Part shown: piece by piece, positions 4,380-56,033 of the stretch
How positions within the stretch are numbered: the first letter of the stretch is position 1
Layout of the letters: each line of letters begins with the position of its first letter
NCBI GenBank assembly: GCA_038063415.1
Contig: JBBTVD010000006.1
Coordinates: forward strand, 221,882-285,881
Source: Patescibacteria group bacterium
GTDB lineage: Bacteria > Patescibacteriota > Microgenomatia > Levybacterales > UBA12049
Direction of reading: 5' to 3'
Length of the DNA: 64,000 bases
Notes under the pieces: generated by a model
What the model saw: the letters and a program-made list of their open reading frames with translations, nothing else
What the model was told of the DNA's origin: nothing
The model's database searches: none
Translations under genes and position numbers: made by a program

Positions 4380-6575
4380 TTATTGTTCTTGATTCTGAGA
4401 TGCAAGGAATTCTTCAGCATTTCTGACCAGTACTTCTCGTGGCTTTGCCCCATCCGCAGGACTGACAATCCCCATTTCTTCCAATTGATCAAGCATTCGA
4501 GCAGCTCTTGCGTAACCAACAGACATTTTGCGCTGGAGGAATGAAGCAGAAGCTGTATTAAATTGGCAAACGAGACGAATTGCTTCCTCGAGTTGCCCAT
4601 CTTTGCCATCTGCTCCAGTAGATGATGAACCTGCCCCTGCACCTTTTTTCAACGGAAGTGGTTGGTTTATCACTTCCTCCGTGTACTCCACAGGATAACT
4701 CCTCGACTTTAAGAAGTCAACCAGCTTATGCACTTCTTTCTCTGAGACAAAACTACCTTGGATACGGGTCGGTTTGGCTTGGTCTGGAGGAATATAGAGC
4801 ATATCTCCCCGACCGAGTAATTTCTCAGCTCCAGCAGAATCAATAATAACCCTGGAATCAATCATTGAAGATACGTTAAAGGCAATACGACAAGGGATGT
4901 TTGCCTTAATAAGCCCAGTAATAACATTAACGGATGGACGCTGGGTTGCGATTACCAAATGAATACCCGTTGCACGAGCCATTTGTGCAAGTCGGGCAAT
5001 CGCGTCTTCAACCTCAACTGGAGCAAACATCATGAGGTCTGCCAACTCATCAATAAAGATAACAATATAAGGCAATGCCTGAAAGCCAGATAATTCGTTG
5101 TATGAATCAATATTGCGGACTCCTCGTTCGGCAAAAATCTTGTAACGTTTGTCCATCTCATGCATCGCCCACTTGAGTGCTGACAATATCTTATCAGGCT
5201 CAACAATAACTGGTGTAAGGAGATGTGGAATACCATTATACGCTGAGAATTCGACACGCTTTGGATCAATAAGAATGAGGCGCACTTCCTGCGGAGATGC
5301 ACGGAAAAGTAAGGTGGCAATAAAGGAATTAATCAGCACTGATTTACCAGAACCTGTCGTACCAGCAACGAGAGAATGGGGTGTTTTTGCAATATCAATT
5401 GCCACGGGTGAGCCTGAAACATCCAGTCCCAAGGAGACAGTGAGTTTTGATTTGGCTTTTTGCATAACGGGAGAAGCAAGCATCGTACGGAGAGAAACCA
5501 GCTCAAGTGATCGGTTAGGAATTTCGATACCAATAAGATTACGTCCAGGGATAGGAGCTTCAATTCTGATTTGTCCGGTAGGAGCTTCGGTCGCGAGTGC
5601 CAAATCATTGGCAAGTGAGGTGATCTTTGAGACTTTGGTACCAAGAGCAATCTCAAGTGCATACTGAGTAACCGCTGGACCCAGATTTACTTCAGCAACT
5701 CGTGCTTCAATACCAAAACTCTGAAGCGTTTTCTCGATAATATTTGCTATCTTTTTGATGTCCCCCCGCTCTGCTTTTTTATTCATTGAATCTTCAAGTA
5801 TGGATAACGAAGGGTATTCCCACACACCTGTTCCTGAAGTTCCAGCGAGCATATTGGTAACGAGCTTCTCGGGAAGAAGCTCTGTCCCTTTCTTTTCTTT
5901 TTCTTCAGACTGTGACTGTTGCTGGACTGCCTTTGCGGGAGTAATAGCTTTTCTATCATCTTCCTTCTGTCCTCCCTTGATCTGAATTGGTTTATTTCGA
6001 TTAAATGCTGGCTTCTCACGTTTGAAAGAAGCAAAAAGTTGCCTCGGGATAAGTTTGTTGAGCGCTTTTCCAATAGCCATGAGGCCATGGAGTACTTCAT
6101 CAAGTGAGGTATCAAAAAGGACAATCAGGCCAACAGCAAGCCCTCCCAAAAGAATGATATCTGCTCCTGCAGTGGTCAGTATTTCTTCAAGGACTCCAAA
6201 CATTCTATCGCCAACGCTTCCCGATCGGGTGATACCAACGAGTGAAATGAAAAAAAGGAGATATCCCATACTTACGTTGAGACGAGAGAGGTACATTTTC
6301 ATATGGAGAAAGAGAAAACCAAAGAGGATAAAAATAAATGGGAAAAAGATCGTCACTCCACCAAATCGCTCGACAAGCAGACTATTTAGGTTTACTGATG
6401 AAGGACCTTGATTAACAAACGAAAGCAGACACAAGATACCGGCAATAAAAAAAGCTATCCCAAAAAGAGAATAGATAGTTTTTTTCTTGAGTTTGAGTTT
6501 AAATGGCTTTTTGCGACCACCACCACGACGAGCAGGCATAAAATCTATTATATACCTTTCGCCCCTAGACCTCAA
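4380..6575 (-). CDS. ftsK: DNA translocase FtsK/SpoIIIE
   Basis: N-terminal TM helices, Walker A GTTGSGKSV, the FtsK motor domain and a C-terminal gamma domain (ASFLQRKMSVGYARAARMLDQLEEMGIV). Confidence 0.9.
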   Translation of the reverse strand: MRSRGERYIIDFMPARRGGGRKKPFKLKLKKKTIYSLFGIAFFIAGILCLLSFVNQGPSSVNLNSLLVERFGGVTIFFPFIFILFGFLFLHMKMYLSRLNVSMGYLLFFISLVGITRSGSVGDRMFGVLEEILTTAGADIILLGGLAVGLIVLFDTSLDEVLHGLMAIGKALNKLIPRQLFASFKREKPAFNRNKPIQIKGGQKEDDRKAITPAKAVQQQSQSEEKEKKGTELLPEKLVTNMLAGTSGTGVWEYPSLSILEDSMNKKAERGDIKKIANIIEKTLQSFGIEARVAEVNLGPAVTQYALEIALGTKVSKITSLANDLALATEAPTGQIRIEAPIPGRNLIGIEIPNRSLELVSLRTMLASPVMQKAKSKLTVSLGLDVSGSPVAIDIAKTPHSLVAGTTGSGKSVLINSFIATLLFRASPQEVRLILIDPKRVEFSAYNGIPHLLTPVIVEPDKILSALKWAMHEMDKRYKIFAERGVRNIDSYNELSGFQALPYIVIFIDELADLMMFAPVEVEDAIARLAQMARATGIHLVIATQRPSVNVITGLIKANIPCRIAFNVSSMIDSRVIIDSAGAEKLLGRGDMLYIPPDQAKPTRIQGSFVSEKEVHKLVDFLKSRSYPVEYTEEVINQPLPLKKGAGAGSSSTGADGKDGQLEEAIRLVCQFNTASASFLQRKMSVGYARAARMLDQLEEMGIVSPADGAKPREVLVRNAEEFLASQNQEQ

Positions 6576-8274
6576 TCACTACAGGGAGCAGCAGTGGACG
6601 AGTGCGGAATTTCCTAGCGAGGTGTTTTCCGGCAGTTTCGGCAATAAGTCGTCTGATATGCGTCCAGTTGGTAACTTGTTCTTTCTTTCGTGACAATACC
6701 TGTTCTAATTCTTGTACAAGCGCACCAGAGAATCCTTGGACGTCGCCAAGCGATGAACCACGTAGAATGATTTCAGGCTTTGCCGCGAGTTGCCCGTCTT
6801 CAGTCTTAATCTCAGCAAGGATAACCACAATCCCCTCTCGGGAGAGACGCTCACGGTCTCGAACGACGAAGTGCTCTACTGCTTCCCCCGAAACTTCATC
6901 AACGTAAATATTGCGTACCGTTACTCGCTTCCCAGGGCGCATAGAGGTTGGTGTAAAGATCATTTCTTGCCCGTTTTCGACAAGCGCAATCTCGTTTGGC
7001 TTGTAGCCCATTTGTCCTGAGAACTCACGATAGGCAACCATATCCCGGTACGTACCACTAATAGGAAGTAAAAATTTGGGCTGGGCAAGCGCAATAAGTA
7101 ACATATGATCACCTGAGGATCCGTGTCCTGATACATGGAACGTACCGGTCAACTCTGAACGAGCAATACGTGCGCCTCGCTTGACTAAGGTGTCCAGAAG
7201 CGTATTTACCGCGATTTCGTTACCAGGGATAACATCTGAAGAGAACACTACGACATCCCCCTTTTCTAGTTTTATCTCCCGATGTTCACCATTTGCAATA
7301 CGGCTGAGCGCTGAGTTTTCTTGTCCCTGACTACCAGCAACAAGGAGGACAATCTTATTGCCAGGATAATTTTTCACGGCATCAATCGAGATTTCCGTAT
7401 CACTTTTTATATGCAGATAGCCTAATTGTTGCCCAATTTCTTTGACTTTGATCACTGATCTTCCAACAAAACAGACTTTTCTTCCCATTTTTTCGGCAGC
7501 CTCAACCACTTGGTTTACCCGCGAGATGTTTGAGGAGTAAGTTGTGAGGATAAATTTACCAGGACAATCACGCATTTCGTCAGCAAAGTTTTTGCCAAGC
7601 GTTTGTTCAGAAGGAGTATGCCCACTTTTATGTGCCCCAAGACAATCAGACATGAGCGCAAGCACTCCGGCTTGGGAAGCTTCAAGGATTTTATGGAACT
7701 CAGTTCGTTTGCCATCAGCGGGTGTGAGATCAAATTTATAATCACTCCCATGAAAAAAATTCCCGACTGGCGTCTTGATAAAAATGTTTGCACTATCAGG
7801 GACTGAGTGAGTTACTCTGATAAAAGAAATCGTAAAATCACCAAGCCGAATCTCTTTATCACCAAAGTTAACAATATTTATGGCCCTGGGTAGCTGGAAT
7901 TCAGCAAGTTTTTCATTGGCTAGCGCAGTTGTTAAGGGCGAGGCATAGAGAGGAAAAGGAATCTTTTTATCAGCAGTCAGCAGCTGTGGAAGGATAAATG
8001 GCAATCCTCCGATATGATCTTCATGACCATGTGTAAAGAGCATACCGACAATTTTCTTCCCTGCTTTGAGACGTTCTTGTAGTGGTGAGATATCAGGAAG
8101 CAACAGATCAACCCCAAGCATCGTTTCATCAGGGAACCCAAGACCACAATCAACAATCAAGATCTGATTGTTGTACTCATAGAGATACATATTACGGGTT
8201 ACTTCTTCTTCTCCACCGAGGGAGAGAAAAGAAACGGAGCCTTGAGGAAAATTTACTTGTTTCACTTCATTCAT
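6565..8274 (-). CDS. rnj: Ribonuclease J (metallo-beta-lactamase / beta-CASP / RMMBL)
   Basis: Motif LFTHGHEDHIGGLPF with the beta-CASP and C-terminal domains; 569 aa. Overlaps ftsK by 11 nt. Confidence 0.9.
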   Translation of the reverse strand: MNEVKQVNFPQGSVSFLSLGGEEEVTRNMYLYEYNNQILIVDCGLGFPDETMLGVDLLLPDISPLQERLKAGKKIVGMLFTHGHEDHIGGLPFILPQLLTADKKIPFPLYASPLTTALANEKLAEFQLPRAINIVNFGDKEIRLGDFTISFIRVTHSVPDSANIFIKTPVGNFFHGSDYKFDLTPADGKRTEFHKILEASQAGVLALMSDCLGAHKSGHTPSEQTLGKNFADEMRDCPGKFILTTYSSNISRVNQVVEAAEKMGRKVCFVGRSVIKVKEIGQQLGYLHIKSDTEISIDAVKNYPGNKIVLLVAGSQGQENSALSRIANGEHREIKLEKGDVVVFSSDVIPGNEIAVNTLLDTLVKRGARIARSELTGTFHVSGHGSSGDHMLLIALAQPKFLLPISGTYRDMVAYREFSGQMGYKPNEIALVENGQEMIFTPTSMRPGKRVTVRNIYVDEVSGEAVEHFVVRDRERLSREGIVVILAEIKTEDGQLAAKPEIILRGSSLGDVQGFSGALVQELEQVLSRKKEQVTNWTHIRRLIAETAGKHLARKFRTRPLLLPVVIEV

Positions 8275-9838: not shown

Positions 9839-10039
9839 TTATCTGCTTATAATATTTTCTGCAATAATGGGATCATAGTCAGATTTACCTTGTAAGAGTG
9901 TTATAAATGGTCTTTTTCCTTTTTCGACAGAGCGAGGAGATGAATACTTGAGATGCCTTGATCCTGTCTGTGGTTCTTCTTTGAAACCCAAACAAAGAAG
10001 ACAAGCAACAAGCTCTCTTGAGCCAAATGATTGGCTCAT
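9839..10039 (-). CDS. hicA: HicA-like mRNA interferase toxin (YcfA family)
   Basis: 66 aa. Pattern LLCLGFKEEPQTGSRHLKY...GKRPFITLLQGKSDYDPIIAENII fits the HicA fold motif (GSHxxxxHP ... KDL..GTL..IL). Start overlaps the stop of the upstream partner (ATGA). Confidence 0.55.
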   Translation of the reverse strand: MSQSFGSRELVACLLCLGFKEEPQTGSRHLKYSSPRSVEKGKRPFITLLQGKSDYDPIIAENIISR

Positions 10040-10368
10040 TGGCCTATACTTCTATGCAAATTTCCTGCGTAGAAAGTATTTACTTTAAATTGACTTAGAT
10101 TGTTTGTCTTCTCTTCCCTAGAAATAGTCACCAATTCTTGTATCGTTTGGTCACTCGGTATAAATCTTACTTGGTCATGATATTTTTTAGGAATATCAAA
10201 GAATGTGTAAATAAGATCATTTACATTAATAAATAACTCGTTTAAATCATTCGCTTCTGTAAAAATGTCGAGCTCTGGTAAATCGGCTATTAAAATTCCT
10301 GTAGTACTCTTCTTTACATCTACTTTAATATATTGGGGTAATTTTGGTAAATCATTCTTTGCTTCCAT
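10036..10368 (-). CDS. hicB: HicB-like antitoxin (N-terminal RNase-H-like HicB fold only)
   Basis: YIKVDVKKSTTGILIADLPELDIFTEANDLNELFINVNDLIYTFF matches the HicB N-terminal pattern (Y.V..EK...G...A..PELPG..T.G.TLEEA..N..EAI). It is translationally coupled to hicA. Confidence 0.45.
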   Translation of the reverse strand: MEAKNDLPKLPQYIKVDVKKSTTGILIADLPELDIFTEANDLNELFINVNDLIYTFFDIPKKYHDQVRFIPSDQTIQELVTISREEKTNNLSQFKVNTFYAGNLHRSIGQ

Positions 10369-10686: not shown

Positions 10687-11559
10687 CTACTCTTCTCTTC
10701 GGAGCGCTTCAAACAGTTCTTTTTGTCTTTTCGACAATTTCCGAGGAACTTGTATCACAATTTTGACATAATGATCACCTTTGCCAGAACCTTGGACATG
10801 TTTTACCCCTCTGCCACTGAGTCGGATAAGTGTCCCAGGTTGTGTCCCGGCAGGAATCCGAATCTTTACTGACCCATCAATCGTTTCTACATTAATTTCC
10901 TCTCCCAACGCCGCTTGAGCATAGGAAACTTCTTTCTCCGAAACAATATCATACCCTTGTCTCTGGAAACGTGTATCCTGCGCAACCTCTACGACAACGT
11001 CATATGCATCAAATCGAATACGAGAACCACTATCAACACCCGCCGGAATCTTGATTTTTTGTGTTTTATTGTCAATGGTTACTTGCTTTTCAGTACCATG
11101 CACGGCTTCATCAAAACTAATCGTTATGCGATAAGCTGGACGACGTTGTCGACTGCCAAAAGGAGATCCCCCACCGCCAAAAAATTGTTCAAAAATATCA
11201 AAGGGATCAGAAAAACCTCCAAAGTCCCCAGCGCCACCATTACCAGAATAGGTATAGGTAAAGGGACCATATTGTCCTCCCTGTTGTCCACCAAACCCTC
11301 CAAAGGGACCGCCTGCTCCACCAGCACCTCCTTGCTCAAAGGCAGCATGGCCGAACTGATCATAGCTTTTTCTCTTCTCTTCATTGGAGAGCACTTCGTA
11401 GGCTTTGGTTACTTCTTTAAATTGTGCTTCCCCTTCTTTGGTTTTGTTATGATCGGGGTGGTACTTGAGGGCAAGTTTTCGATACGCTTTTTTGATCTCA
11501 TCATGTGAGGAGGTCTTTGTAACACCTAATATTTCATAATAATCTTTGTTCTCTGCCAT
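10687..11559 (-). CDS. dnaJ: DnaJ-family co-chaperone (type II/CbpA-like; J domain, G/F region and C-terminal domains, but no CxxCxGxG zinc finger)
   Basis: J domain KDYYEILGV...KKAYRKLALKYHPD, a Gly-rich region and the C-terminal substrate-binding domains. The start is moved from the ORF-track M1 (11580) to MAENKDYYEILGV (11559), which matches canonical DnaJ N-termini. Confidence 0.85.
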   Translation of the reverse strand: MAENKDYYEILGVTKTSSHDEIKKAYRKLALKYHPDHNKTKEGEAQFKEVTKAYEVLSNEEKRKSYDQFGHAAFEQGGAGGAGGPFGGFGGQQGGQYGPFTYTYSGNGGAGDFGGFSDPFDIFEQFFGGGGSPFGSRQRRPAYRITISFDEAVHGTEKQVTIDNKTQKIKIPAGVDSGSRIRFDAYDVVVEVAQDTRFQRQGYDIVSEKEVSYAQAALGEEINVETIDGSVKIRIPAGTQPGTLIRLSGRGVKHVQGSGKGDHYVKIVIQVPRKLSKRQKELFEALRREE

Positions 11560-11569
11560 ATATACTAAA

Positions 11570-11590
11570 AAGGGCGCCATCGCGCCTCAA
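11570..11590 (-). terminator. Intrinsic terminator/attenuator hairpin between dnaK and dnaJ (GGCGC-GAUG-GCGCC followed by CUUUUU on the minus strand)
   Basis: Seen directly: plus strand 11573-11577 ggcgc / 11582-11586 gcgcc, with an A5 run upstream on plus (U5 downstream on the transcribed strand). Partial termination between dnaK and dnaJ is common. Confidence 0.45.
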
Positions 11591-11605: not shown

Positions 11606-11676
11606 TTTGTCATTCTGGCTTGTCCAGAATCAGAAACCTCTGATCCTGGATGCGCTCCGCTTACCAGGATGACGCT
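11606..11676. repeat. Structured palindromic intergenic repeat, copy 1 of 3, in the dnaK-dnaJ spacer
   Basis: gtcattctggcttgtccagaatc...gatcctggatgcgctccgcttaccaggatgacg contains hairpin ATTCTGG/CCAGAAT, hairpin ATCCTGG/CCAGGAT and an outer pair GTCAT/ATGAC. It is near-identical to 29531-29601 and to the reverse complement of 46703-46760. Confidence 0.6.
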
Positions 11677-11681
11677 ACATT

Positions 11682-13613
11682 TTACTCTACAACTTCGCCT
11701 TCGATAGGTTTCTCTTTGTCTTTTTTGTCTTTCTCTGCTTCTTTGCCATCCTCTTTTTTATCGTCAGTTTTAGTCTCAGATTCTTCGGTTTGACCAGCTG
11801 GTTGATCAGAAGGAGGTGTCTGAGCATAGGCTGCTTGCCCTATTTTTTGCAAACTATCTGACAATTCCTGTGTCTTTGCCTGAATGTCTTCTTTACTTCC
11901 TGAATCAAGAATATCTTTAAGCCCCTTTGCTTTTTCTTCAACTTCTTTTTTGACATCTTCTGCAATCTTATTCTCTTTATCCTCACGGATAGTTTTTTCT
12001 GCGGTAAAGATCAATGCATCTGCTTGATTGCGTACTTCAATCTTTTCTTTTTTCTCTTCGTCTTCTTTGGCATGCATTTCTGCTTCTTTAGTCATCTTTT
12101 CAACTTCTTCTTTGGAGAGACCTGTTGATCCCGTAATCTTAATGCTTTGCTCCTTGCCACTTGCCTTATCCTTTGCCGTAACGTTCAGGATGCCACTGGC
12201 ATCGATATCAAAGATTACTTCTACTTGCGGAACACCTCGAGGAGCTGGAGGAATACCATCAAGAACGAATTTCCCAAGAGATTTATTATCAGCAGCCATT
12301 GGACGCTCTCCTTGAAGAATGTTAATTTCAACCTGTGTTTGATTGTCACCAGCGGTTGAAAATACTTGCGATTTGGAAGTCGGGATTGTGGTGTTACGGG
12401 TAATAAGTGGTGTTGAGACACTCCCTAGGGTTTCGATACCAAGAGTCAATGGCGTTACATCAAGGAGTAAGACATCTTTCACTTCTCCACCAAGCACACC
12501 TGCTTGTACTGCCGCACCTACAGCGACTACTTCATCAGGATTAACCCCACGGTTAGGTTCTTTACCAAAGAACTTAGTTACTGCTTCAACCACTTTTGGC
12601 ATGCGGGTCATGCCACCCACCATAATAACTTCATCAATGTTTGCACTCTGCAATTTTGCATCCTCAAGTGATTTCTTCACTGGCTCCAGTGTCTTTTGAA
12701 TCAGTTCATCAACAATTTGCTCGAGCTTTGCTCGAGTCAAGGTCATAGTCAAATGGAGTGGACCATCTTTGCCTTGCGTGATAAACGGTTGATTAATGGA
12801 CGCTTCTTGACTGCTAGAAAGTTCAATCTTTGCCTTTTCTGCTGATTCTTTGAGTCTTTGCAATGCCTGTGGATCTTTACGCAGATCAACCCCATGCTCT
12901 TTTTGGAACTCATCAGCAAGGTAATCAATAATCTTCTGATCAAAATCATCACCACCAAGATGCGTATCACCATTGGTTGCTTTTACTTCATAAACACCAT
13001 CTCCGAGTTCAAGAACAGAGATATCAAAGGTTCCTCCTCCTAAATCATAGACAGCAATCGTGTGCGCATTTTTCTTATCAAGACCGTAGGCGAGAGCTGC
13101 TGCTGTTGGTTCATTGATAATACGAAGTACTTCAAGACCAGCAATTTCTCCAGCTTGCTTGGTGGCTTGGCGCTCACTATCATCAAAGTATGCAGGAACG
13201 GTAATAACAGCCTGAGTAACTTTTTCTCCAAGATAGGATTCTGCATCTGTTTTGATCTTCTGCAAAATCATTGCGGAGATCTCTTGTGGAGTAAAGGTCT
13301 TGCCATCGACTTCAACAACAGCCATATCATCGCGTCCTGCCTTGACTGAATAGGCAAGGAACTTCAGGTCATATTGTACCGATTTGTCAGAAAACTTCCT
13401 CCCCATCAAACGCTTAACTGAAGCAATCGTTTGCTTAGGTTTAAGAGCCATCTGTCGCTTTGCGACGTCTCCAACAATATGTGCTATCGGATCAACCACA
13501 GATGGGATAACATTGCGGCCTTCGGCAGAGTGAATTACTTTGGGAGATCCTCCCTCCATTACAGCTACACATGAATTTGTTGTTCCTAAATCAATTCCTA
13601 TTATTTTAGCCAT
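11682..13613 (-). CDS. dnaK: Molecular chaperone DnaK (Hsp70)
   Basis: [30 protein letters not shown] and a C-terminal acidic EVVE tail; 643 aa. Confidence 0.97.
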
Positions 13614-15547: not shown

Positions 15548-15640
15548 ATCTTTATCGATATTACTACTGCTACTGCTTTGTTCCTTATGCTTGAAGCTAT
15601 TGGTGTTGTTATCCTCAAAATATCTGGCTGGACTTATTAA
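15548..15640 (+). pseudogene. Orphan 3' gene fragment (~30 codons) homologous to the C-terminus of the downstream 493-aa surface-protein gene, followed by a small hairpin
   Basis: In-frame translation *IFIDITTATALFLMLEAIGVVILKISGWTY* versus the downstream gene end AAIVGALFLTASFLMLEVIGIDILKIPGWTL*. About 80% nucleotide identity over the last ~57 nt. The hairpin TTGAGT-ATTTAG-ACTCAA at 15646-15663 follows its stop. Confidence 0.5.
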
Positions 15641-15680
15641 TAGAGTTGAGTATTTAGACTCAATATGACAAAATAAAAAG

Positions 15681-17162
15681 GTGCTAGATAGAAAGACTAA
15701 AAATAAAAAGAAGTGTTTTTTATACTTTTTCCTCTACGCTTTTCTGTTCCTTTTTTTTATTCCTTTTACTATCCCTGTTTATGCGGCAGGAGAAACTTAT
15801 ACATGGGTAAATGGTTCCATTCAACTTAGTGGCGGTGATGTTACAACTCAAAAAACTCTCACTGGTTCAGAAATTGCATCAGGAGGACAAACACAATATG
15901 GACCTGAATTTATGAGGATTAGTCCTGCAGGAGGAGAATGCGATATTAACATTGCTGTACGAGTGCCAACGGGAAATACTGCAACTGGGGTACTGACGGC
16001 CACATCGGGAATAAGTCAACCCAATAATATGGGCTGCAATCAAGATATTGTTAACACCTATAACGGAAAATCAGTCACAATTGGTGGCAATCAAGCAGAA
16101 GGACGAGAAGAAACCGCGGCAGAGAGAATTGTTACCCTGCTCCTCATCTCCCCTGAGACCGATACTGCACCAGCATCCATAACTATTACCGTTAATAATG
16201 TTGTTGACGGGGTTCCTCGTTCTGGATCATTTACCGCAAATAAGGAGATTAAAGAAACTCGCAGTGGTAATGGAATCGATAGTGCCTATTATACTTTTCA
16301 ATATACTATTAGTCCTGGAGAAATGCAGATATGTGCAGATGCCATTATAGAATGTGAAACAGCTACAAAACTTAAATATACTCCCTTATTTATCTCTTTT
16401 GGTCAAACAAAAGAGCAGAGAATGATCAATGTAACAGTTGAAGCAATTATTACTCATTTTATTTCACAGTCTTGCCAATCAAATGGCTTAACAGTTGAAC
16501 TTAAGCAAAACAATGAGGTCAAACAAACCGTCCAAACTGACCCTATAGAAATCACAGCAGATACAGAAAATACAGAATTTGGTGGAGAGGGTGCATTGTC
16601 GGAGACAACCAAATCTCTCAAAGTTACCTTTGAAAATGTCGATCCTGGAACATATCAAGTTTGTATTGCTGGCACAACTGATTGTCAGGGGGTGATACTT
16701 GTAGAGGGGCAATTACCAGCAAATGGACATACGGCAACAGTGCAGACACGAATTGAAAATGGAGCAGATATTTGTGAAGCACCGGGAGGAAGTGTTTTTG
16801 AAAAAAAAGAGAACATAATCCCACCCCCACCACCCTGTGCAGACCTCCGAGATGGTAAATGCTGGGCAGTTGCTACATCTTTCTTCGGTCTTGATGTTGA
16901 GGGTCTCTTTTACACTGACCCCGAAGAACTTATTGTTCAAGTTTTTAGTATTCTCTTGAGTATCTCTGGAGGTCTTTGTCTGCTTATTCTTATTATTGGT
17001 TTCTACCGCGTCATTATCTCTCGTGGCAAACCGGAAGCCCTTAAGGCTGCTCAAGAACAAATCCAAGCTGCTATTGTCGGAGCCCTCTTCCTTACGGCAT
17101 CTTTTCTTATGCTTGAGGTTATTGGTATTGATATTCTCAAAATCCCCGGCTGGACTTTGTAG
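15681..17162 (+). CDS. Secreted, Cys-containing surface protein with an N-terminal signal peptide and a C-terminal two-helix membrane hairpin (VirB2/TrbC-pilin-like topology, speculative)
   Basis: GTG start. Signal peptide ...FIPFTIPVYA|AGE, an extracellular region with several Cys and a PPPPP segment, and a C-terminal LLSISGGLCLLILIIGFYRVIISRGKPEALKAAQEQIQAAIVGALFLTASFLMLEVIGIDIL. Confidence 0.55.
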   Translation: MLDRKTKNKKKCFLYFFLYAFLFLFFIPFTIPVYAAGETYTWVNGSIQLSGGDVTTQKTLTGSEIASGGQTQYGPEFMRISPAGGECDINIAVRVPTGNTATGVLTATSGISQPNNMGCNQDIVNTYNGKSVTIGGNQAEGREETAAERIVTLLLISPETDTAPASITITVNNVVDGVPRSGSFTANKEIKETRSGNGIDSAYYTFQYTISPGEMQICADAIIECETATKLKYTPLFISFGQTKEQRMINVTVEAIITHFISQSCQSNGLTVELKQNNEVKQTVQTDPIEITADTENTEFGGEGALSETTKSLKVTFENVDPGTYQVCIAGTTDCQGVILVEGQLPANGHTATVQTRIENGADICEAPGGSVFEKKENIIPPPPPCADLRDGKCWAVATSFFGLDVEGLFYTDPEELIVQVFSILLSISGGLCLLILIIGFYRVIISRGKPEALKAAQEQIQAAIVGALFLTASFLMLEVIGIDILKIPGWTL

Positions 17163-17190
17163 TAATTTACGATTATCCTAATAAAATAGC

Positions 17191-26115: not shown

Positions 26116-28407
26116 TTATCTAGTTACTAAGCCAAATTCGAGAACTTCTCCACCACAATAGGTGGTAATAAGATCACAAGATTCTTGCAAAGATTTACGT
26201 ACCTGCTCTGGCGTTATCTCATCAATGCCATCTACATTAAGATAGATATTTTTTGTTTGCTCTGTTACCGCTGTTCTCTGGGAATCTCGGAAATTGAAAT
26301 CAATATTGTATCCTCCTTGCTGATCAAAATAGGAAAGTTCTGTTTCCTTGTACTTTGTAGATTCAGTATCGCCAAGTAATAAAATCTCCTCCCCAGCTTT
26401 TGCAAAGCGAAGTTCAGTCGGGAACTGCAGAGTATCTAGATCAAATGCGCCAATCGAGATACGATGCCTCATTACAACTAGATTATATGCATCTACACAA
26501 GTATTGATTGTATATAAATCTTTTCCTTGAGCAACCCGTCGAAGTAACGCTTCAGGGCTGGGTCTGCGTGAATGCCAATCAATCCCCATTGCTTTATAGA
26601 GTTTTCGATAACTTAAGACTTCAAGATATTCTCCAATTTTTTCTGTCGTTAGTCCTTTTAAAGAATCCAACAATTTTTCCTTCTCTTTTTCAAGTTCTGG
26701 GTTTGTTTTACTAATAGTAACTCCCTTAATGACGGCAATACCAATGGAGATTGAAGGATGTTTTTCTTTGACGTTTTTATCTATTGAAAAAATGTTTGAG
26801 GAAATACCAGTCATTCTGGCAAGCGGAGCGCGTCCAGAATCTTTATTTTCGATTCTGGAGTCCTCGCTTTCGCTCGTCCCCAGAATGACGTCATTAAACC
26901 TCTTTTGTACAAAATCTTTCTCAAGAGAGAGGATAAACCAAGCAGCTTTTGGTCCATGGTCTTTGCCAATGAGGGACTGGTAGATTGCTGAAAAAGTTTG
27001 TTTACCATTGAGTCCCAAGGGCTTCCCTAATTCATAAATCTGTGTCTGTAAATCATCAGCATTCCACTCTTTATCTAACTCTGCAACTATTTTTTGTAAA
27101 AGTTCTTTTTGTTCAGCAGAGAGATGTTTTGCTCCCTCTGGCGTATCTTTCTGAACCAAGAATTTTGCAGAATCTGGCGCATACTTTTCTATCCACACTC
27201 TCGCATATTTCGCCCATTCCTCAAGTCCTTCCTCTTTAATTTTGTCTTGCATGTTCGGCATCTGCACCCACTGTGCAAGTACAGAGAAACGAATACTTGG
27301 CGGTTTGACTATATCACCAATTTGTGAGAGTTCAAAAGTACGAGCAAGATCTTCATCCGTTTTATCAAAATATGCTGCTGCTGCTTTTTGATACGCATCA
27401 AATAAATTTGGAATAGTATCTTTCTCCGTTGGATCAAAGTTTGTTTGCTGTTTTATATCCATTTTTACAATCAAAAAACGAACTAACTCTGCCGGTAAAA
27501 TAGAAAGCATATCTCCAGCTGAAAAACCTCTTCCTTTTGAAGAAGACATTTTTTTCCCACCAATCAACATAAATTCATAACTAACAGGATATGGCACAGG
27601 ATAATCAAGCACTTTCTTAGCAATAAGCGAGGTGAGGTCATGCGACCCACCCTTACTCATATGATCCTTTCCAGCACCCTCTACGGTCACACCAATCGCT
27701 TGCCATTTGCAAGCCCATTCTATTTTCCACGGCATTTTTCCTTTAATACCGTTTTCATCACTAAATGGAGAAGTTTTTCCTTCATGTCCACACCCTTTTG
27801 TCCATTCAGTGGCATCAACTGGGCAACGGTAGTGAACAAATTCTCCATCCCAGTCATAGACGCGAGTTGTTGAAACCTTGCCACAGGATTCACAGTAAAC
27901 CTGGAAAGGATACCAGTCAGCAGGCATTTCTTTTTTATACATTTGTTGATAAATACTTCGTATTTCGGAAGCGTTATCCAATGCTTTTTTAACCCCAGTA
28001 TTCATTTTGCCACTCGTATATAAGTCTTTCGTCCAGATGATTTCAGGATATGATCCGATTTGGTTAAAAGCTTTTTTGAATTCTAATGCATAATACTCAG
28101 CATAATCTTTGTAACCCTCAAGAGGTGAAGGAACTCTAAAAAGTGGCATACCAAGATACTTCTCAAATTTCTCTCGAGGGAGATAAGAAGGTATATCATC
28201 CATTGGGTCATGGTTTTCAAATACATAGGTATACTTTGCCGCTACACCTTGATCTTTTAATGCTCGGTAAACCAAATCATGGAAAACCACCCCAAAAAGT
28301 GAACCTACATGAATACGACCCGATGGTGTCTTCATATCGTCAACCCAATAAGGTGTATATTTACCTGAATCAATAATTTCTTTTGCTACTTTATCTGCCC
28401 AGAACAT
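26116..28407 (-). CDS. lysK: Class I lysyl-tRNA synthetase fused to a ~250-aa C-terminal extension carrying a B3/4 (PheT-type) domain
   Basis: The N-terminal 510 aa align to archaeal-type LysRS-I (MFWADKVAKEII..., TPSGRIHVGS, EGAGKDH, KMSSSKG, AWFILSLEKDFVQKRF). The C-terminal part contains NTCVDAYNLVVMRHRISIGAFDLDTLQ, matching the B3/4 core (vDitNyv...g.P.HaFDld). Confidence 0.8.
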   Translation of the reverse strand: MFWADKVAKEIIDSGKYTPYWVDDMKTPSGRIHVGSLFGVVFHDLVYRALKDQGVAAKYTYVFENHDPMDDIPSYLPREKFEKYLGMPLFRVPSPLEGYKDYAEYYALEFKKAFNQIGSYPEIIWTKDLYTSGKMNTGVKKALDNASEIRSIYQQMYKKEMPADWYPFQVYCESCGKVSTTRVYDWDGEFVHYRCPVDATEWTKGCGHEGKTSPFSDENGIKGKMPWKIEWACKWQAIGVTVEGAGKDHMSKGGSHDLTSLIAKKVLDYPVPYPVSYEFMLIGGKKMSSSKGRGFSAGDMLSILPAELVRFLIVKMDIKQQTNFDPTEKDTIPNLFDAYQKAAAAYFDKTDEDLARTFELSQIGDIVKPPSIRFSVLAQWVQMPNMQDKIKEEGLEEWAKYARVWIEKYAPDSAKFLVQKDTPEGAKHLSAEQKELLQKIVAELDKEWNADDLQTQIYELGKPLGLNGKQTFSAIYQSLIGKDHGPKAAWFILSLEKDFVQKRFNDVILGTSESEDSRIENKDSGRAPLARMTGISSNIFSIDKNVKEKHPSISIGIAVIKGVTISKTNPELEKEKEKLLDSLKGLTTEKIGEYLEVLSYRKLYKAMGIDWHSRRPSPEALLRRVAQGKDLYTINTCVDAYNLVVMRHRISIGAFDLDTLQFPTELRFAKAGEEILLLGDTESTKYKETELSYFDQQGGYNIDFNFRDSQRTAVTEQTKNIYLNVDGIDEITPEQVRKSLQESCDLITTYCGGEVLEFGLVTR

Positions 28408-28420
28408 AGTTAGTATTGTA

Positions 28421-29527
28421 TCATGCGATATAGCCTTTTTTCACCAGTAACTCTGCTGCCAGTATCGCTCCTCCAGCAGCGCCACGAATGGTATTGTGAG
28501 AAAGCGCAATAAACGAATAATCAAAATGTGTGTCCTCTCGAAGTCTCCCCATGGTAATCCCCATCCCATTTCCATAATCACGATCAAGCTTCGTTTGTGG
28601 TCTATTCTCTTCTGCAAAATACTTAATAAGTTTTGTGGGGGAAGAAGGCAAGTCAAGAGAAACGAGTGCATGGTTTTTATTAAAATTTTCTATCGCTTGC
28701 AGTAATTGCTCTTTGGTTGGTCTTTTGGCAAAAGAGACAGAGACACTTGCCATATGCCCATCTGCAACTGGTACTCGAATACAAGTTGCTGAAATCGATG
28801 GTTGGATTGCAGAAACTAATACATCTTCTTTAATTGTTCCCCAAATCTTCATGGGCTCTTTTTCTGACTTTTCTTCTTCTCCTCCGATAAGTGGGATCAC
28901 GTTATCAATCATTTCTGGCCAAGTTTCAAAATTCTTTCCCGCACCTGAAATTGCTTGGAGACTGGTCACCTGAACTTGTTTTGGTTGAAACTCTCGTAAT
29001 GCTGTCAAAATAATACTGTACGATTGGATCGAGCAGTTAGGTTTGACTGCAATAAAACCCTTTTTCCATCCTCTCTTTTTTTGCTGTACGGGGATAAGGT
29101 CTGCATGATGAGCATTTACTTCGGGTATAAACATTGGGATATCCTCAGTCCAACGATGTGCTGAGTTATTGGAGACAACTGGGACACCACGTGCCGCATA
29201 GGATTCTTCAATCTTTTGAATAGTCTCTTTATCAAGATCAAGCGCACAAAAAACAAAATCAACTGATTCTGTAATTTTCTCTTTATCATCAACTACCGAT
29301 TGTACAATAAGGTTACCTAAGCTGGTCGGAATTTTTTCTTGCATTTTCCAAGTCCCACTCACTGCTTCTCCATACTCTTTTCCAGCAGATCGAGGAGAAG
29401 CAGCAACAACAACCACTTTAAACCATGGATGATTCTCAAGAAGGGCAATGAATCGCTGTCCGACCATCCCAGTTGCGCCTAAGATACCTACTTTATATTT
29501 TTTTCTTTTCATAGTTTTTATTGTCAT
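28421..29527 (-). CDS. asd: Aspartate-semialdehyde dehydrogenase
   Basis: KVGILGATGMVGQRF NAD(P)-binding start, catalytic Cys region and the C-terminal dimerisation domain; 368 aa. Confidence 0.9.
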   Translation of the reverse strand: MTIKTMKRKKYKVGILGATGMVGQRFIALLENHPWFKVVVVAASPRSAGKEYGEAVSGTWKMQEKIPTSLGNLIVQSVVDDKEKITESVDFVFCALDLDKETIQKIEESYAARGVPVVSNNSAHRWTEDIPMFIPEVNAHHADLIPVQQKKRGWKKGFIAVKPNCSIQSYSIILTALREFQPKQVQVTSLQAISGAGKNFETWPEMIDNVIPLIGGEEEKSEKEPMKIWGTIKEDVLVSAIQPSISATCIRVPVADGHMASVSVSFAKRPTKEQLLQAIENFNKNHALVSLDLPSSPTKLIKYFAEENRPQTKLDRDYGNGMGITMGRLREDTHFDYSFIALSHNTIRGAAGGAILAAELLVKKGYIA

Positions 29528-29530
29528 CTT

Positions 29531-29601
29531 TCGTCATTCTGGCCGAGTCCAGAATCCGTTTCTATTAAGATCCTGGATGCGCTGCGGCTCACCAGGATGA
29601 C
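29531..29601. repeat. Structured palindromic intergenic repeat, copy 2 of 3, in the dapA-asd spacer
   Basis: cgtcattctggccgagtccagaatc...gatcctggatgcgctgcggctcaccaggatgacg. Same element as 11606-11676. Confidence 0.6.
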
Positions 29602-29625
29602 GGTTAGGTAAGGCAATTTATACTT

Positions 29626-30510
29626 CTAGATTAGTTCCATATTCTTTAATACTTTTTTCAACTCTTCTTTATTTTTCTTTTCCATTTGAACGAGCGGCAA
29701 GCGGAAAACTTCCTCGACCTTTCCCATCAGAGCAAGTGCCGTTTTAACTGGCTGGGGATTCGTCTCAATAAAATTAACATCCATGAGATCCAATAGCTGA
29801 TAATGCATCTTTTTTGCTTTCTCCCATTCTCCCGCAAGGGCGTGTTGAACAAGTTGGGTAAAGGCTTTCGGAGTTTCGTTTGCAACAACCGAAATGGCAC
29901 CCATTCCTCCAATTGCAATGATTGGCAAGGTGAAGTTGTCATCGCCAGAAAGAAGGGAGAAGTTTTTTGGAGCACTTCTGATAATCTCCATCATCTGGGG
30001 AAGATTCGCAGATGATTCTTTGATACCAATCACTTGTGGAATCTCTTGTGCTATACGTAGCGTCGTTGCCGCAGTCATATTACTCCCCGTTCTTCCCGGG
30101 ACATTATAAAGTAAAAACGGTAAGTCTACCGTTGCAGCAATCGCTTTATAGTGTGCAAGAAGACCAGCTGGTGTTGGTTTGTTGTAGTAGGGATTTACAT
30201 GCAGTAAAATATCCGCACCAGATTTTTTTGCAAGTTGCGATAAATGAATTGACTTATGCGTATCATTACTTACAGCACCAGCAATCACAGGAATACGTCC
30301 AGCTACCGTATCAACCACCGTTTTGATCACGAGTGAGTACTCTTCAAAACTCAGGGTTGCTGCCTCTCCAGTTGACCCACATGCTACGATACCATTGATA
30401 CCTTCTTTTATTTGAAAGGCAACGAGTTTTTGTAGCGTTGGCACGTCAACATTTCCCTTTTTATCAAAAGGAGTCACAAGCGCAGTGATGGCACCAGTCA
30501 GTTGTTTCAT
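29626..30510 (-). CDS. dapA: 4-hydroxy-tetrahydrodipicolinate synthase
   Basis: LTGAITALVTPF... TIM-barrel DapA/NAL family; 294 aa. Sits in the lysine operon. Confidence 0.9.
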   Translation of the reverse strand: MKQLTGAITALVTPFDKKGNVDVPTLQKLVAFQIKEGINGIVACGSTGEAATLSFEEYSLVIKTVVDTVAGRIPVIAGAVSNDTHKSIHLSQLAKKSGADILLHVNPYYNKPTPAGLLAHYKAIAATVDLPFLLYNVPGRTGSNMTAATTLRIAQEIPQVIGIKESSANLPQMMEIIRSAPKNFSLLSGDDNFTLPIIAIGGMGAISVVANETPKAFTQLVQHALAGEWEKAKKMHYQLLDLMDVNFIETNPQPVKTALALMGKVEEVFRLPLVQMEKKNKEELKKVLKNMELI

Positions 30511-40788: not shown

Positions 40789-40789
40789 A

Positions 40790-42025
40790 TTAGATTGTTT
40801 TAATTGCTTTACCAATAATGTCTGGCAGGGGAGTGGTCTGGTCTCCAACAAACCCCAATAGTTTTTCTTTTTCAAGAAATGCTTCCATCTGGGCAAGTCC
40901 TTCTTCTTGATGTGGTCCACCTCGTCTGACGAATACTTGAATATGCTGCTTATGCAATGCTCCTGCTACTTCTTGTAATGCTCGTATCAGTCCACTAAAG
41001 GTAATTCGAACATCTGAAAAATTGGCAACGCCTCCAGCAATGATGAGTACTTTCTTTTTTGCTTTTGATCTCAAAAGGAGACTTACCAAATTTTTGGTAT
41101 ATAAATATACTTCTTCAGCATTGGGGTTACCACTGTATTCCCCATAGTTGGCAAGTTGTTTACCATAACCCAAATTATATCCTTCATCAGCAAGCACAAT
41201 ACTTGCCCCTCCACCGGAAAGAAGCATAAAGATGCCGCCATCCAAGTTGAGCATCTCAAGACTAAATGACGCTTGGCTTTTTTCGGACAATGCGTCTATG
41301 TTGTTTTCTTCTGTCGTTTTCTCTCTGGTCTGCGCTGCTCGGAAATCTGTTTCTGTCCAGGCATGGTGGACAAAAAAGAGTCCCGAACTATCAACTTCAG
41401 CCGCAACATCAAGCAGTGAGATGTTAGTTCCTTCCACTACCAATGGATTTATTTCAAAAAAAGAGAAATGATACTCATTAAAGGTAGAAATAAGTTTTTT
41501 TAAAAATTCTTTTGGCAAATTTAAAGCCTTTATAACTTTGTCATTCTCGCGAAGGCGGGAATCCAGCCCTGCTAAAGCACGATCCATAGATTCCGGCTCG
41601 GAGGCCGGAATGACAGGAATAAGCAGTTGATTAATTGAATTCCGATTCTCTTCAATATCGATCCCTCCCTTTACTGAAAATAACACTTCGATACCTTCAC
41701 GCGTCCGAGAAAGTGAAAGATACTTTTCTGATTCTTGTGAATGGGGGAGAAATGCTTCAATAATGACATGCGAGTATCCCTTGGCAAACAGTTTCTTTGC
41801 TTCCTTCTCTACATCAATTGACGAAACCTTCAGCGCGACAAGCCCTTGTTTCATGCGCTTTTTGACTCCTTCATCGACTTTTACGACATACGTCTGTTTC
41901 GGATCAAGTTTTTCAAGTATTTTTCTATCATCAGTTTTTGTAAAACTAATCCCCTGGTAGGGGAGACCGAGTTCTTTTGTGAGGATTCCTTTTGCACTGT
42001 ATTCACTTATTTTTTTTCGTGCCAT
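40790..42025 (-). CDS. aclB: ATP-citrate lyase beta-type subunit (ATP-grasp, SucC-like, corresponding to the ACLY N-terminal half)
   Basis: [41 protein letters not shown] and [15 protein letters not shown] correspond to the ACLY motifs [41 protein letters not shown] and IFVRRGGPNYQEGL. Confidence 0.85.
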   Translation of the reverse strand: [411 protein letters not shown]

Positions 42026-42052
42026 GAGGTAATTATACCATGAGTTAAGGAG

Positions 42053-46702: not shown

Positions 46703-46760
46703 CGTCATCCTGGTAAACGAAGTGCATCCAGGATCGATTCTGGACAAGCCAGAATGACGG
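46703..46760. repeat. Structured palindromic intergenic repeat, copy 3 of 3, inverted orientation and lacking the 10-nt internal spacer, in the greA-xfp spacer
   Basis: The reverse complement reads ccgtcattctggcttgtccagaatcgatcctggatgcacttcgtttaccaggatgacgg. Same element as 11606-11676 and 29531-29601. Confidence 0.6.
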
Positions 46761-46762
46761 TG

Positions 46763-47236
46763 TCAACCAATAGACACGACTCTATACATAACTGTTCCTG
46801 CTGGGGCTTCAACAGCAACCTCATCACCAACGGTTTTTCCAAGTAATGCTTTCCCAAGTGGTGATTCATGGGAAATTTTCTTTTGCTCAGGATCTGCCTC
46901 CCATTCACCAACAACATGAAAGACTGCTTCACGTGAGTTAATCTTGACCGTCACTTGTGAACCAAGCTCAACCATATTTGATGTATGATTACTATCATCG
47001 ATCAAAACAACTTGTTTCAGTAATAATTCAAGTTCTTCAATGCGTCCATCGATAAACGCGAGTTCTTCTTTTGCTGCAATATATTCTGCATTTTCTGAAA
47101 GATCTCCTTGATCGCGTGCTTCAGAAAGTCGTGCAACAATAGCCGGACGTTTCGTATTAAGGAGTTCGTTATATTCTTTTTTAAGGTCGTCAAGACCCTG
47201 TTTGGTGAGATACATTTTTTTGCTGTTTGGATTCAT
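46763..47236 (-). CDS. greA: Transcription elongation factor GreA
   Basis: N-terminal coiled-coil (YLTKQGLDDLKKEYNELLNTKRPAIVARLSEARDQGDLSENAEY) and a C-terminal FKBP-like domain; 157 aa. Confidence 0.9.
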   Translation of the reverse strand: MNPNSKKMYLTKQGLDDLKKEYNELLNTKRPAIVARLSEARDQGDLSENAEYIAAKEELAFIDGRIEELELLLKQVVLIDDSNHTSNMVELGSQVTVKINSREAVFHVVGEWEADPEQKKISHESPLGKALLGKTVGDEVAVEAPAGTVMYRVVSIG

Positions 47237-55598: not shown

Positions 55599-56033
55599 TT
55601 ACGATTTAAGTGCTAATTTATCTTGATATTTGTGCTCTTCTCCTTCAAAAACAAACAGTCTCTTGAGTAATCGATCTCGCAATTTGTTTTGTGGCAGCAT
55701 GCCTTTAACTGCATGCGTAATGATTTCAGCTGGTTTTCGTATGCGTAACTCTTTTAGGGTTTCTACTTTAAAACCACCTGGATAGCCAGAATGACGATAA
55801 TATTTCTTTTGTTCTTCTTTGTTACCGGTTACGGCAACATCTTTCGCATTTATGATAACCACATAGTCACCACAGTCAAGATTTCGAACAAAGTATGACT
55901 TACTTTTACCCATTAAGAGATGTGCAATTTCAGTTGAGATTCTCCCAAGTGGCTTATCTTTCACATCAATGAGATGCCATGCCCGCTTAATATCTGCTGC
56001 TTTTGTCGGTTGTGTTGCTACTGTATAATTCAT
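55599..56033 (-). CDS. rplM: 50S ribosomal protein L13
   Basis: KRAWHLIDVKDKPLGRISTEIAHLLMGK... Confidence 0.95.
   Translation of the reverse strand: MNYTVATQPTKAADIKRAWHLIDVKDKPLGRISTEIAHLLMGKSKSYFVRNLDCGDYVVIINAKDVAVTGNKEEQKKYYRHSGYPGGFKVETLKELRIRKPAEIITHAVKGMLPQNKLRDRLLKRLFVFEGEEHKYQDKLALKS

Follow-up and report, generated by a model that had tools for sequence, protein, structure and literature searches.

Inverted dimers of YGTC-tagged hairpins in a Patescibacteria genome are probable relatives of the Ssn-associated REP elements

What are the palindromic repeats that lie between genes of shared direction in a Patescibacteria group bacterium, and on which nucleic acid do they act? The DNA analyzed (the window) is a stretch of 64,000 nucleotides of contig JBBTVD010000006.1 (assembly GCA_038063415.1, positions 221,882 to 285,881). 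A reading of its sequence alone had noted a family of three structured repeats of about 60-70 nt, one of them at 11606-11676 between dnaK and dnaJ, and had proposed either an element resembling repetitive extragenic palindromic (REP) sequences or transposable elements of the miniature inverted-repeat type (MITEs), or a conserved RNA motif. We found that each repeat is an inverted dimer of one hairpin module with an outward-pointing tag. In related genomes of the candidate phyla radiation (CPR), the same modules bracket a small GIY-YIG gene homologous to ssnA of Neisseria, and some copies are inserted in frame at variable sites of proteins. In our judgment the elements are probably inverted dimers of CGTC/TGTC-tagged REP hairpins that belong to the Ssn-related (NTS/SRM) class and act at the DNA level.

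The three intergenic copies were found where they had been reported, with GTCAT...ATGAC at 11609-11673, 29533-29601 and, inverted, 46704-46758. Pfam confirmed the minus-strand neighbors as dnaK>dnaJ, dapA>asd and greA>xfp, and the spacers between these genes measure 101, 98 and 159 nt, respectively. The count of three was too low. Two more dimers, at 26810-26889 in a lysyl-tRNA synthetase (LysRS) gene and at 41540-41614 in an ATP-citrate-lyase-like (ACL-like) gene, were recovered with the ATTCTGG hairpin pattern and a one-mismatch search for GTCATYCTGG. The window therefore holds five copies, three in operon spacers and two in frame within essential genes. Their coordinates are given in Table 1.

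The 7-bp arms described earlier, ATTCTGG/CCAGAAT and ATCCTGG/CCAGGAT, are exact. The outer pair had been given as CGTCAT...ATGACG, but in copy 1 it reads TGTCAT...ATGACG. Read in one orientation, dimer 1 consists of GTCATTCTGG-CTTGT-CCAGAATC, a spacer of 10 nt and GATCCTGG-ATGCGCTCCGCTTA-CCAGGATGAC (11609-11673). Dimer 2 has the same layout but with the loop CCGAGT and a 12-nt spacer (29533-29601). Copy 3 is indeed inverted, and its modules adjoin without the internal spacer of 10-12 nt that separates those of copies 1 and 2. In dimer 5, both sides of the stems ATTCTCGC/GCGGGAAT and ATTCCGGC/GCCGGAAT are altered relative to the other copies.

The five dimers contain 10 modules, and every GTCAT tag points outward. 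All 10 modules carry GTC before the palindrome and C directly after it. The tag is CGTC in four and TGTC in four, and A or G precedes GTC in the other two. Dinucleotide shuffles of the window gave 0.00 expected matches for ATCCTGG-N-CCAGGAT and 0.01 for ATTCTGG-N-CCAGAAT, compared with three and five found. Folded as single-stranded DNA (ssDNA), the dimers are predicted to take one of two forms, a pair of hairpins that share an outer stem or a single long hairpin that runs through the outer arms, in agreement with the alternative folds proposed before. DNA folding z-scores range from -2.8 to -4.9.

A sixth site at 55775-55796 (minus strand; CGTCATTCTGGCTATCCAGG, CGTCATTCTGGCTATCCAGGTGG) was rejected. 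Its tag and left arm are exact, the right arm is degenerate, and the site encodes RHSGYPGG within the ribosomal protein L13 gene, whose Ribosomal_L13 domain is uninterrupted. We take this peptide to be a conserved L13 motif. The match is a coincidence and not a module.

The sequence-only reading had suggested that further copies be sought elsewhere, and these exist in number. When the dimer pattern was scanned over one genome per GTDB species, at least 115 stretches matched in other genomes, most of them labelled Patescibacteria. The record titles among the matches listed name Roizman-, Levy-, Curtiss-, Davies-, Gottesman- and Shapirobacteria, and further Kazan, Berkelbacteria, Saccharibacteria and Magasanikbacteria. 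A few of the matches listed lie in contigs of Myxococcota, Elusimicrobia and Weeksellaceae metagenome-assembled genomes (MAGs). Many matching MAGs are titled 'uncultured Gammaproteobacteria', some with CPR-sized chromosomes, and the taxonomy is that of the record labels alone. No match was found in 2.9 million viral contigs. As for the window itself, several of the closest named relatives of its LysRS are Candidatus Levybacteria.

The family is built from single hairpin modules, and the elements of the window are inverted dimers of them with the tags outward. The layout of the module is YGTC-AT[Y]CNNG-loop-CNNG[R]AT-C, which consists of an unpaired 5' YGTC tag, a stem that starts with A-T and T-A pairs, a variable complementary core, a loop and a 3' C. 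Among 556 unique modules, a pyrimidine precedes GTC in 515 (T 295, C 220) and a C follows the palindrome in 507; both bases lie outside the detection rule. The stem is 7 bp long, mainly ATTCTGG or ATCCTGG. It always begins A-T, T-A in these 556 modules, and positions 3 and 5-7 vary on both sides (T-A/C-G, G-C/C-G/T-A and G-C/A-T). Short loops have 5-7 nt, most commonly CTTGT. Long loops have 14-60 nt; their base is conserved, for example as GGAGCG...CGACT or ATGCG...CTTA, and their apical stem can expand. In 104 clean dimers, two long loops (54) or a long and a short loop (44) are usual and two short loops rare (6), with spacers of 0-34 nt; single modules and trimers occur too. The outer ends of the dimers form 10-nt inverted repeats, GTCATYCTGG...CCAGRATGAC, and in 123 of 126 dimers GTCAT...ATGAC is preceded by Y and followed by R. 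Reversed sequences served as a control and contained 49 modules, against 582 in the real ones.

CGTC-tagged hairpin repeats, such as dRS3/NTS of Neisseria and RPE-4 and RPE-6 of Rickettsia, have been puzzling for two decades and were tied to an enzyme only in 2025. The CGTC-tagged REP superfamily, CGTC-1 to CGTC-4, was described by Di Nocera, De Gregorio and Rocco (BMC Genomics 2013, PMC3733652). Its members have a CGTC/TGTC tag, A-T at stem positions 1 and 2 and a short tail, and they mostly form inverted dimers. Stems are 8-9 bp and loops 4-5 nt long, with unusual loops in some families, and dimers within genes code for 20-30 aa. dRS3 (CGTC-1) and the Rickettsia elements RPE-6 and RPE-4 belong to the superfamily, which 'apparently lacks a dedicated transposase' and whose hosts come from five phyla, Proteobacteria, Chlorobi, Bacteroidetes, Spirochaetes and Thermotogae (PMC3733652). 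The CPR elements have the same kind of tag, A-T stem start, tail C, inverted dimers and intragenic copies. Spacers of 0 to a few tens of nucleotides and frequent heterodimers are likewise common to both.

The enzyme was identified in Neisseria, where the NTS, CGTCATTCCCGCGMAVGCGGGAATCYRG, encompasses dRS3 (Chenal et al., Nat Commun 2025, PMC11893778). SsnA is a single-domain GIY-YIG nuclease of 94 aa (CDD cd10448) that binds and cuts the NTS solely in its ssDNA form, and binding and cleavage restricted to ssDNA were shown for both Neisseria and Wolbachia enzymes. Cleavage occurs a few nucleotides 5' of the tag, in the non-conserved flank. Cleavage depends most on the three nucleotides that precede the palindrome and binding on the C that follows it, and SsnA does not bind RNA. 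Homologues of ssnA, defined by blastp E < 1e-10, are flanked by such motifs across bacteria (PMC11893778). The modules described here share with NTS/SRM the (C/T)GTC tag, a palindrome starting AT and the C directly after it, and the positions conserved across the CPR family are those critical for SsnA. The window module at 41540-41563 is nearly an NTS itself. Unlike NTS/SRM, the dominant CPR stem is 7 bp of ATTCTGG or ATCCTGG, and the loops are often 14-60 nt long with an extra stem-loop. Unlike the published Ssn hosts, the host is a CPR/Patescibacteria MAG. Patescibacteria are mentioned in neither PMC11893778 nor PMC3733652, and a literature search on Patescibacteria or the candidate phyla radiation together with palindromic elements or MITEs found nothing relevant. 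Ssn-associated CGTC-type REP dimers as such are known already; Patescibacteria/CPR is a phylum for which we found no report of them.

In what follows, L-numbers denote fetched loci and P-numbers protein homologues. Small GIY-YIG genes are present in the fetched CPR loci L046, L041, L028, L070, L050 and L112, and a remnant is present in L036. In L046, L041, L028 and L070, the gene lies between two modules whose tags point outward, with the same polarity as in the window dimers. The same bracketing was found in Levybacteria (L201/L202) and Daviesbacteria (L203/L204), and Curtissbacteria are also among the CPR genomes with such units. The products are single-domain proteins of 91-102 aa, and PF01541 is the sole Pfam domain in five of these proteins that were scanned. 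A gene of this size with modules on both sides recalls the NTS-ssnA-NTS arrangement. No NCBIfam model names the CPR nucleases, and in the PDB only distant UPF0213 GIY-YIG structures were found (E = 5e-4).

The unit of L201 (Levybacteria GCA_016182235.1) is 355 bp long and consists of a module at 9951-9992, an open reading frame (ORF) at 10001-10309 and a module at 10283-10305. This right module is identical in 23 of 23 positions to window 11609-11631. The nuclease takes its final eight residues, DSGQARMT, from this hairpin, with the stop codon just past the element. In the Daviesbacteria unit of L203 (2938-3303), the ORF stops a few nucleotides short of the right module. The units examined have a long-loop module upstream and a short-loop module with CTTGT at the stop codon, and window dimers 1-3 also pair one long with one short loop. 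Gene callers often extend the ssn ORF upstream across the left module, which gives products of 107-165 aa.

As the Ssn reference we used the gonococcal chromosomal homologue, taken from a 2.17-Mb chromosome that is filed as a plasmid in PLSDB (NZ_CP119142.1). The L070 protein matched the Neisseria gonorrhoeae ssnA homologue by tblastn with E = 4e-25 and 50% identity, and over their whole length the CPR proteins share 43-50% identity with it (alignment A3). The gonococcal homologue has no clean start: the only listed ORF of at least 70 aa begins at alignment residue 21, a possible frameshift.

Since the table of 556 modules is conditioned on pairing, the pairing test was redone on loci picked by protein alone, namely 80 metagenomic loci selected in a scan with the protein alignment. 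Modules were found within 150 bp upstream of 48 of these ssn-like genes, downstream of 55 and on both sides of 41. Their orientation favors tags that point outward, by 47:15 upstream and 68:16 downstream. The flanks, about 24 kb in total, contain 146 modules, compared with 56 in 193 kb elsewhere, a density about 20-fold higher. A perfect 7-bp Watson-Crick hairpin follows GTCAT in 134 of 276 flanking pentamers, as opposed to 51 of 439 elsewhere. The arms comprise 25 different sequences, all starting AT and each accompanied by its complement, and C follows the palindrome in 127 of the 134 modules. The sequence-only reading had suggested a check for compensatory substitutions, and these 25 arms answer it in favor of the hairpin, be it of DNA or of RNA.

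Some modules near ssn-like genes in the metagenomic loci L132, L135, L159 and L174 have arms of the type GTCATTGCGAG... These presumably resemble the ends of Rickettsia palindromic elements (RPEs).

One locus, L036, was rejected as an intact ssn locus. It contains two near-identical dimers 490 bp apart around a GIY-YIG remnant of about 30 codons. The stretch 5500-6650 of this locus is repeat-dense, with an NTS-type module, GTCATTCCCGCGCAGGCGGGAATC, nearby, and it looks like a decayed ssn unit.

Two of the window dimers are translated. Dimer 4 is read as VILGTSESEDSRIENKDSGRAPLARMT and forms residues 507-533 of LysRS, in a variable linker between the anticodon-binding and B3_4 domains (alignment A1). 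Dimer 5 is read as VIPASEPESMDRALAGLDSRLREND and forms residues 138-162 of the ACL-like subunit, in a loop that follows a strand of the ATP-grasp domain (alignment A2). In both proteins, the Pfam domains on either side of the insert are intact. The AlphaFold model of the ACL subunit has a mean predicted local distance difference test score (pLDDT) of 83, and the score falls below 50 only at residues 141-145 and 147-149, which lie within the element-encoded segment.

Among 120 LysRS homologues, a dimer occupies this linker in four (P0001, P0002, P0012 and P0053), and P0067 has one at another site, residues 353-385, translated as RHSGKRSQ...DSGQARMT. DNA sequences confirmed the elements in P0012 and P0002 (L199 and L200), 8 and 5 residues past a conserved KRF compared with 2 in the window. 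The LysRS DNA of P0004 (L198) lacks the element. In other lineages, different translated modules of the CGTC type occupy the corresponding ACL loop (P0194, P0203 and P0171). The patchy distribution fits repeated gain or loss at permissive sites.

A second site of insertion in LysRS, columns 366-380 of A1, is occupied in P0017 by an unrelated-looking insert of 15 aa, ARPPASLIAGEVGRG. The C-terminal B3_4 domain fused to LysRS has the fold of the PheRS beta subunit, and the fusion is kept in Levybacteria-like homologues of about 750 aa. One and the same gene carries a dimer at a homologous position in L035 (7131-7215), L064 (6078-6132) and L010 (332-362), which are two Daviesbacteria and a MAG with the label Gammaproteobacteria. 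As the flanks share only about 75% identity, the position marks either an insertion that is old and has been retained or a hot spot.

For the family as a whole, 35 of 113 dimers lie in long ORFs, defined as open for at least 50 codons on both sides of the dimer. As only these lie in ORFs, the remaining dimers are concentrated in the non-coding fraction of the genomes, which is assumed to be small. Translated dimers start with VIL(G)... or (R)HSG... and end with ...(A)RMT or ...Q(N/D)D. No in-ORF dimer uses the frame in which CCAGAATGA gives P-E-stop (TGA). According to Ogata et al. (2000, 2002), as cited in PMC10969869 and PMC3733652, RPEs are palindromic repeats that interrupt unrelated housekeeping genes of Rickettsia while keeping the reading frame. 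The CPR copies are like them in that a peptide is inserted at fold-compatible sites in a small-genome bacterium. Unlike RPE-1-type elements, which are about 150 bp long and genus-specific, the window family is common to many CPR lineages; the likeness of the two is one of description.

Modules bracket a GIY-YIG gene in relatives, and therefore the window copies would be gene-less dimers of the Ssn system. By their sequence, the 55-80-nt dimers of the window look like the two ends of an ssn unit minus its gene. Several results weigh against this assignment to the Ssn class. The window itself has no ssn-like gene by tblastn at E <= 1. At the gonococcal locus (L117, 250-710), canonical NTSs stand on both sides of the gene, but their tags face it, opposite to the outward tags of CPR. 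The published SRM pattern, HGTCWYN(0-2)YYVSBRHN(0-5)WNVSBRGN(0-2)RNCYNB, matches only one of the 10 window modules (41539-41566) and leaves out the other nine, including those with CTGG stems, although this pattern is a search tool and not a biochemical definition. The 7-bp stems and the loops of 5 to about 60 nt depart from the stem and loop lengths of CGTC REPs. The lengths of the in-ORF dimers fall in all three residue classes modulo 3 (23, 9 and 3), so the inserted DNA is not 'dimer plus constant' and does not behave as a fixed-length cut and paste. Cleavage in a non-conserved flank, as reported for SsnA, could by analogy give variable dimer ends.

The results on movement also count against the assignment. 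When the joined flanks of dimers were BLASTed against all fetched loci, the matches were divergent or were filled orthologous sites, and no high-identity pair of a filled and an empty site was found. One identical Curtissbacteria ssn protein has the constant neighborhood HD-ssn-serS-secA on all 24 contigs read, and the loci examined gave no sign of recent mobility or transposition. Around 126 dimers, no target-site duplication was seen at any offset beyond chance. With no target duplication, no empty site and a single neighborhood in 24 contigs, any activity must be slow. With 78% identity to its Curtissbacteria counterpart, a Parcubacteria Ssn-like protein exceeds the roughly 60-74% seen for LysRS among the homologues listed, and this suggests transfer of ssn between CPR lineages.

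The proposal that the repeats are RNA motifs would make them selected parts of polycistronic mRNA, such as stabilizers, RNase III/Y sites or attenuators for dnaK/dnaJ, dapA/asd and greA/xfp. The three intergenic copies lie in short spacers between co-directional genes and are for that reason probably transcribed. Their folds are stable by the z-scores above, their stems covary, and it has been argued that REPs are often found downstream of ORFs and may function as RNA elements (PMC3733652). However, in the transcript copy 3 runs opposite to copies 1 and 2, two further copies are translated within ORFs, and the same modules form the ends of nuclease-gene units. SsnA, the characterized relative of these nucleases, shows no binding to RNA (PMC11893778). 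The unpaired tag and the 3' C, both conserved, are marks of a DNA site recognized by protein, and covariation of a palindrome backs DNA and RNA hairpins equally. Rfam gave no window match at gathering scores and, around copy 1, only chance-level matches at E up to 10. The suggested role in RNA processing or stability thus gained no positive support and is not needed for the window copies. An effect on mRNA could occur as a side effect; as the reason for the existence of the family it is not supported, and we consider it unlikely.

If the repeats were instead classical MITEs, they would be internally deleted insertion sequences that a DDE-type transposase mobilizes in trans. The 10-nt terminal inverted repeats, sizes of 55-130 nt and dispersed copies with a longer gene-carrying relative are what such elements would show. 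Yet the 126 dimers lack target-site duplications, the only product of the gene-carrying relative is a GIY-YIG nuclease of about 95 aa, which is not a known transposase, and single modules and trimers exist. Moreover, the inner arms repeat the outer ones, which is the architecture of a REP dimer and not of terminal repeats plus filler. Of the REP/MITE-like description given earlier, the REP part is borne out by the CGTC/TGTC-tagged inverted dimers and the strict MITE part is not; we regard a MITE origin as very unlikely. REP doublets of the GTAG type (REPINs), which are moved by RAYT, an IS200/IS605-like Y1 transposase, come closer in form. They too have tagged hairpins in inverted doublets that can fold singly or as one long hairpin, they cluster in intergenic regions, and the gene of their ssDNA-hairpin-specific enzyme is flanked by its own repeats and probably domesticated. 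The CPR tag is YGTC and not GTAG, however, and the gene between the modules is GIY-YIG and not Y1_Tnp (an HUH enzyme), although no search aimed at Y1 transposases was made. The GTAG and CGTC superfamilies are kept apart, and no RAYT was found linked to CGTC repeats (PMC3733652). This origin has hardly any probability in our estimate. A local duplication artefact or chance similarity could be imagined from the small copy number in a single window. It is refuted by the shuffles, by the five copies in unrelated contexts, by the matching stretches in other genomes and by the excess of modules over reversed sequences, and we assign it next to no weight.

We infer that a CPR Ssn acts on the modules and that this genome encodes one. 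Binding and cleavage of ssDNA only are carried over by analogy from the Neisseria and Wolbachia enzymes, and copies might arise as follows. DNA would become single-stranded on the lagging-strand template, during repair or after uptake from outside. Each strand of a dimer would then present one correctly oriented module at its 5' end. An Ssn-type nuclease would bind the base of the hairpin through the tag, the A-T/T-A pairs and the 3' C, and would nick a few nucleotides 5' of the tag. Slow spread and turnover could follow by a nick-and-repair or copy route, combined with transfer between CPR lineages. Copies would persist only where they are harmless, in short operon spacers and in surface linkers of proteins when in frame.

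A bolder version of the Ssn-class explanation holds that the unit of about 355 bp, hairpin-ssn-hairpin, is an autonomous minimal mobile element, with a GIY-YIG ssDNA nuclease of 95 aa serving as transposase or homing enzyme and the 55-80-nt dimers as its non-autonomous derivatives. We consider this rather doubtful. If true, the autonomous ssn unit would represent a new enzymatic class of prokaryotic transposition. The dimers would, over evolutionary time, seed peptide linkers in essential proteins of ultra-small genomes, and they might serve as a mark of self when DNA is taken up, a process on which CPR cells presumably depend.

Near-identical module ends occur under the titles Levybacteria, Daviesbacteria, Curtissbacteria, Roizmanbacteria, Gottesmanbacteria, Saccharibacteria and others. 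In its host range, the system now extends to the most reduced free-standing bacterial genomes. The 355-bp unit, whose right hairpin encodes the protein C-terminus, offers a compact natural test of Ssn-driven DNA mobilization, and new Ssn/target pairs may serve as ssDNA tools. The family also explains odd CPR peptides, VILG...ARMT and RHSG...QND, and spurious small ORFs in CPR annotations. In-frame insertion of palindromes into housekeeping genes is not peculiar to Rickettsia.

Table 1. Repeat dimers, their modules and neighboring genes in the window. Gene names of neighbors are by Pfam.
Feature	Position	Strand	Description
Dimer 1	11608..11674	.	dnaK-dnaJ spacer; GTCAT...ATGAC at 11609-11673
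Dimer 1 short-loop module	11609-11631	+	GTCATTCTGG-CTTGT-CCAGAATC; then 10-nt spacer
Dimer 1 long-loop module	11642-11673	-	GTCATCCTGG-TAAGCGGAGCGCAT-CCAGGATC
Dimer 2	29532..29602	.	dapA-asd spacer; 12-nt spacer between modules
Dimer 2 module	29533-29556	+	
Dimer 2 module	29569-29601	-	
Dimer 3	46703..46759	.	greA-xfp spacer; inverted relative to dimers 1 and 2; no internal spacer
Dimer 3 long-loop module	46704-46735	+	
Dimer 3 short-loop module	46736-46758	-	
Dimer 4	26809..26890	.	within LysRS-B3_4 gene
Dimer 4 module	26810-26841	+	
Dimer 4 module	26851-26889	-	
Dimer 5	41539..41615	.	within gene of ATP-citrate-lyase-like ATP-grasp subunit
Dimer 5 module	41540-41563	+	GTCATTCTCGCGAAGGCGGGAATC; NTS-like
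Dimer 5 module	41589-41614	-	GTCATTCCGGCCTCCGAGCCGGAATC
Intrinsic-terminator-like hairpin	11573..11586	-	GGCGCGATGGCGCC then CTTTTT; between dimer 1 and dnaJ; outside the repeat family
dnaK (HSP70)	11682..13613	-	upstream neighbor of dimer 1
dnaJ	10687-11580	-	neighbor of dimer 1
dapA	29626-30510	-	flanks dimer 2
asd	28421-29527	-	flanks dimer 2
greA	46763-47236	-	flanks dimer 3
xfp-CoA_binding_2 fusion	43811-46603	-	flanks dimer 3
Class I LysRS-B3_4 fusion gene	26116-28407	-	carries dimer 4
ATP-citrate-lyase-like ATP-grasp subunit gene	40790-42025	-	carries dimer 5

The GC hairpin with T5 that had been described after copy 1 is present as a terminator-like site, read from 11586 to 11573 on the minus strand. 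Several other features of the window were observed. The phosphoketolase next to dimer 3 has the domains XFP_N, XFP and XFP_C together with a C-terminal CoA_binding_2, an unusual fusion. Immediately adjacent, at 38989-43810 on the minus strand, lies an ATP-citrate-lyase-like pair of Citrate_bind/ATP-grasp and CoA-ligase/citrate-synthase subunits, and an AMP-binding acetyl-CoA-synthetase-like gene adjoins this pair. At 900-1550, a Gly/Val-rich repeat with a 12-nt period, GGnGTTGCTGTTGG, was found, and an 81-nt direct repeat (1293-1373 and 1908-1988) is 77% identical over copies 615 nt apart; both probably belong to the repetitive region of a surface protein. A direct repeat of 72 nt with 78% identity (15571-15642 and 17093-17164) lies before the start and at the 3' end of the ORF at 15681-17162 and is probably a duplicated short coding segment.

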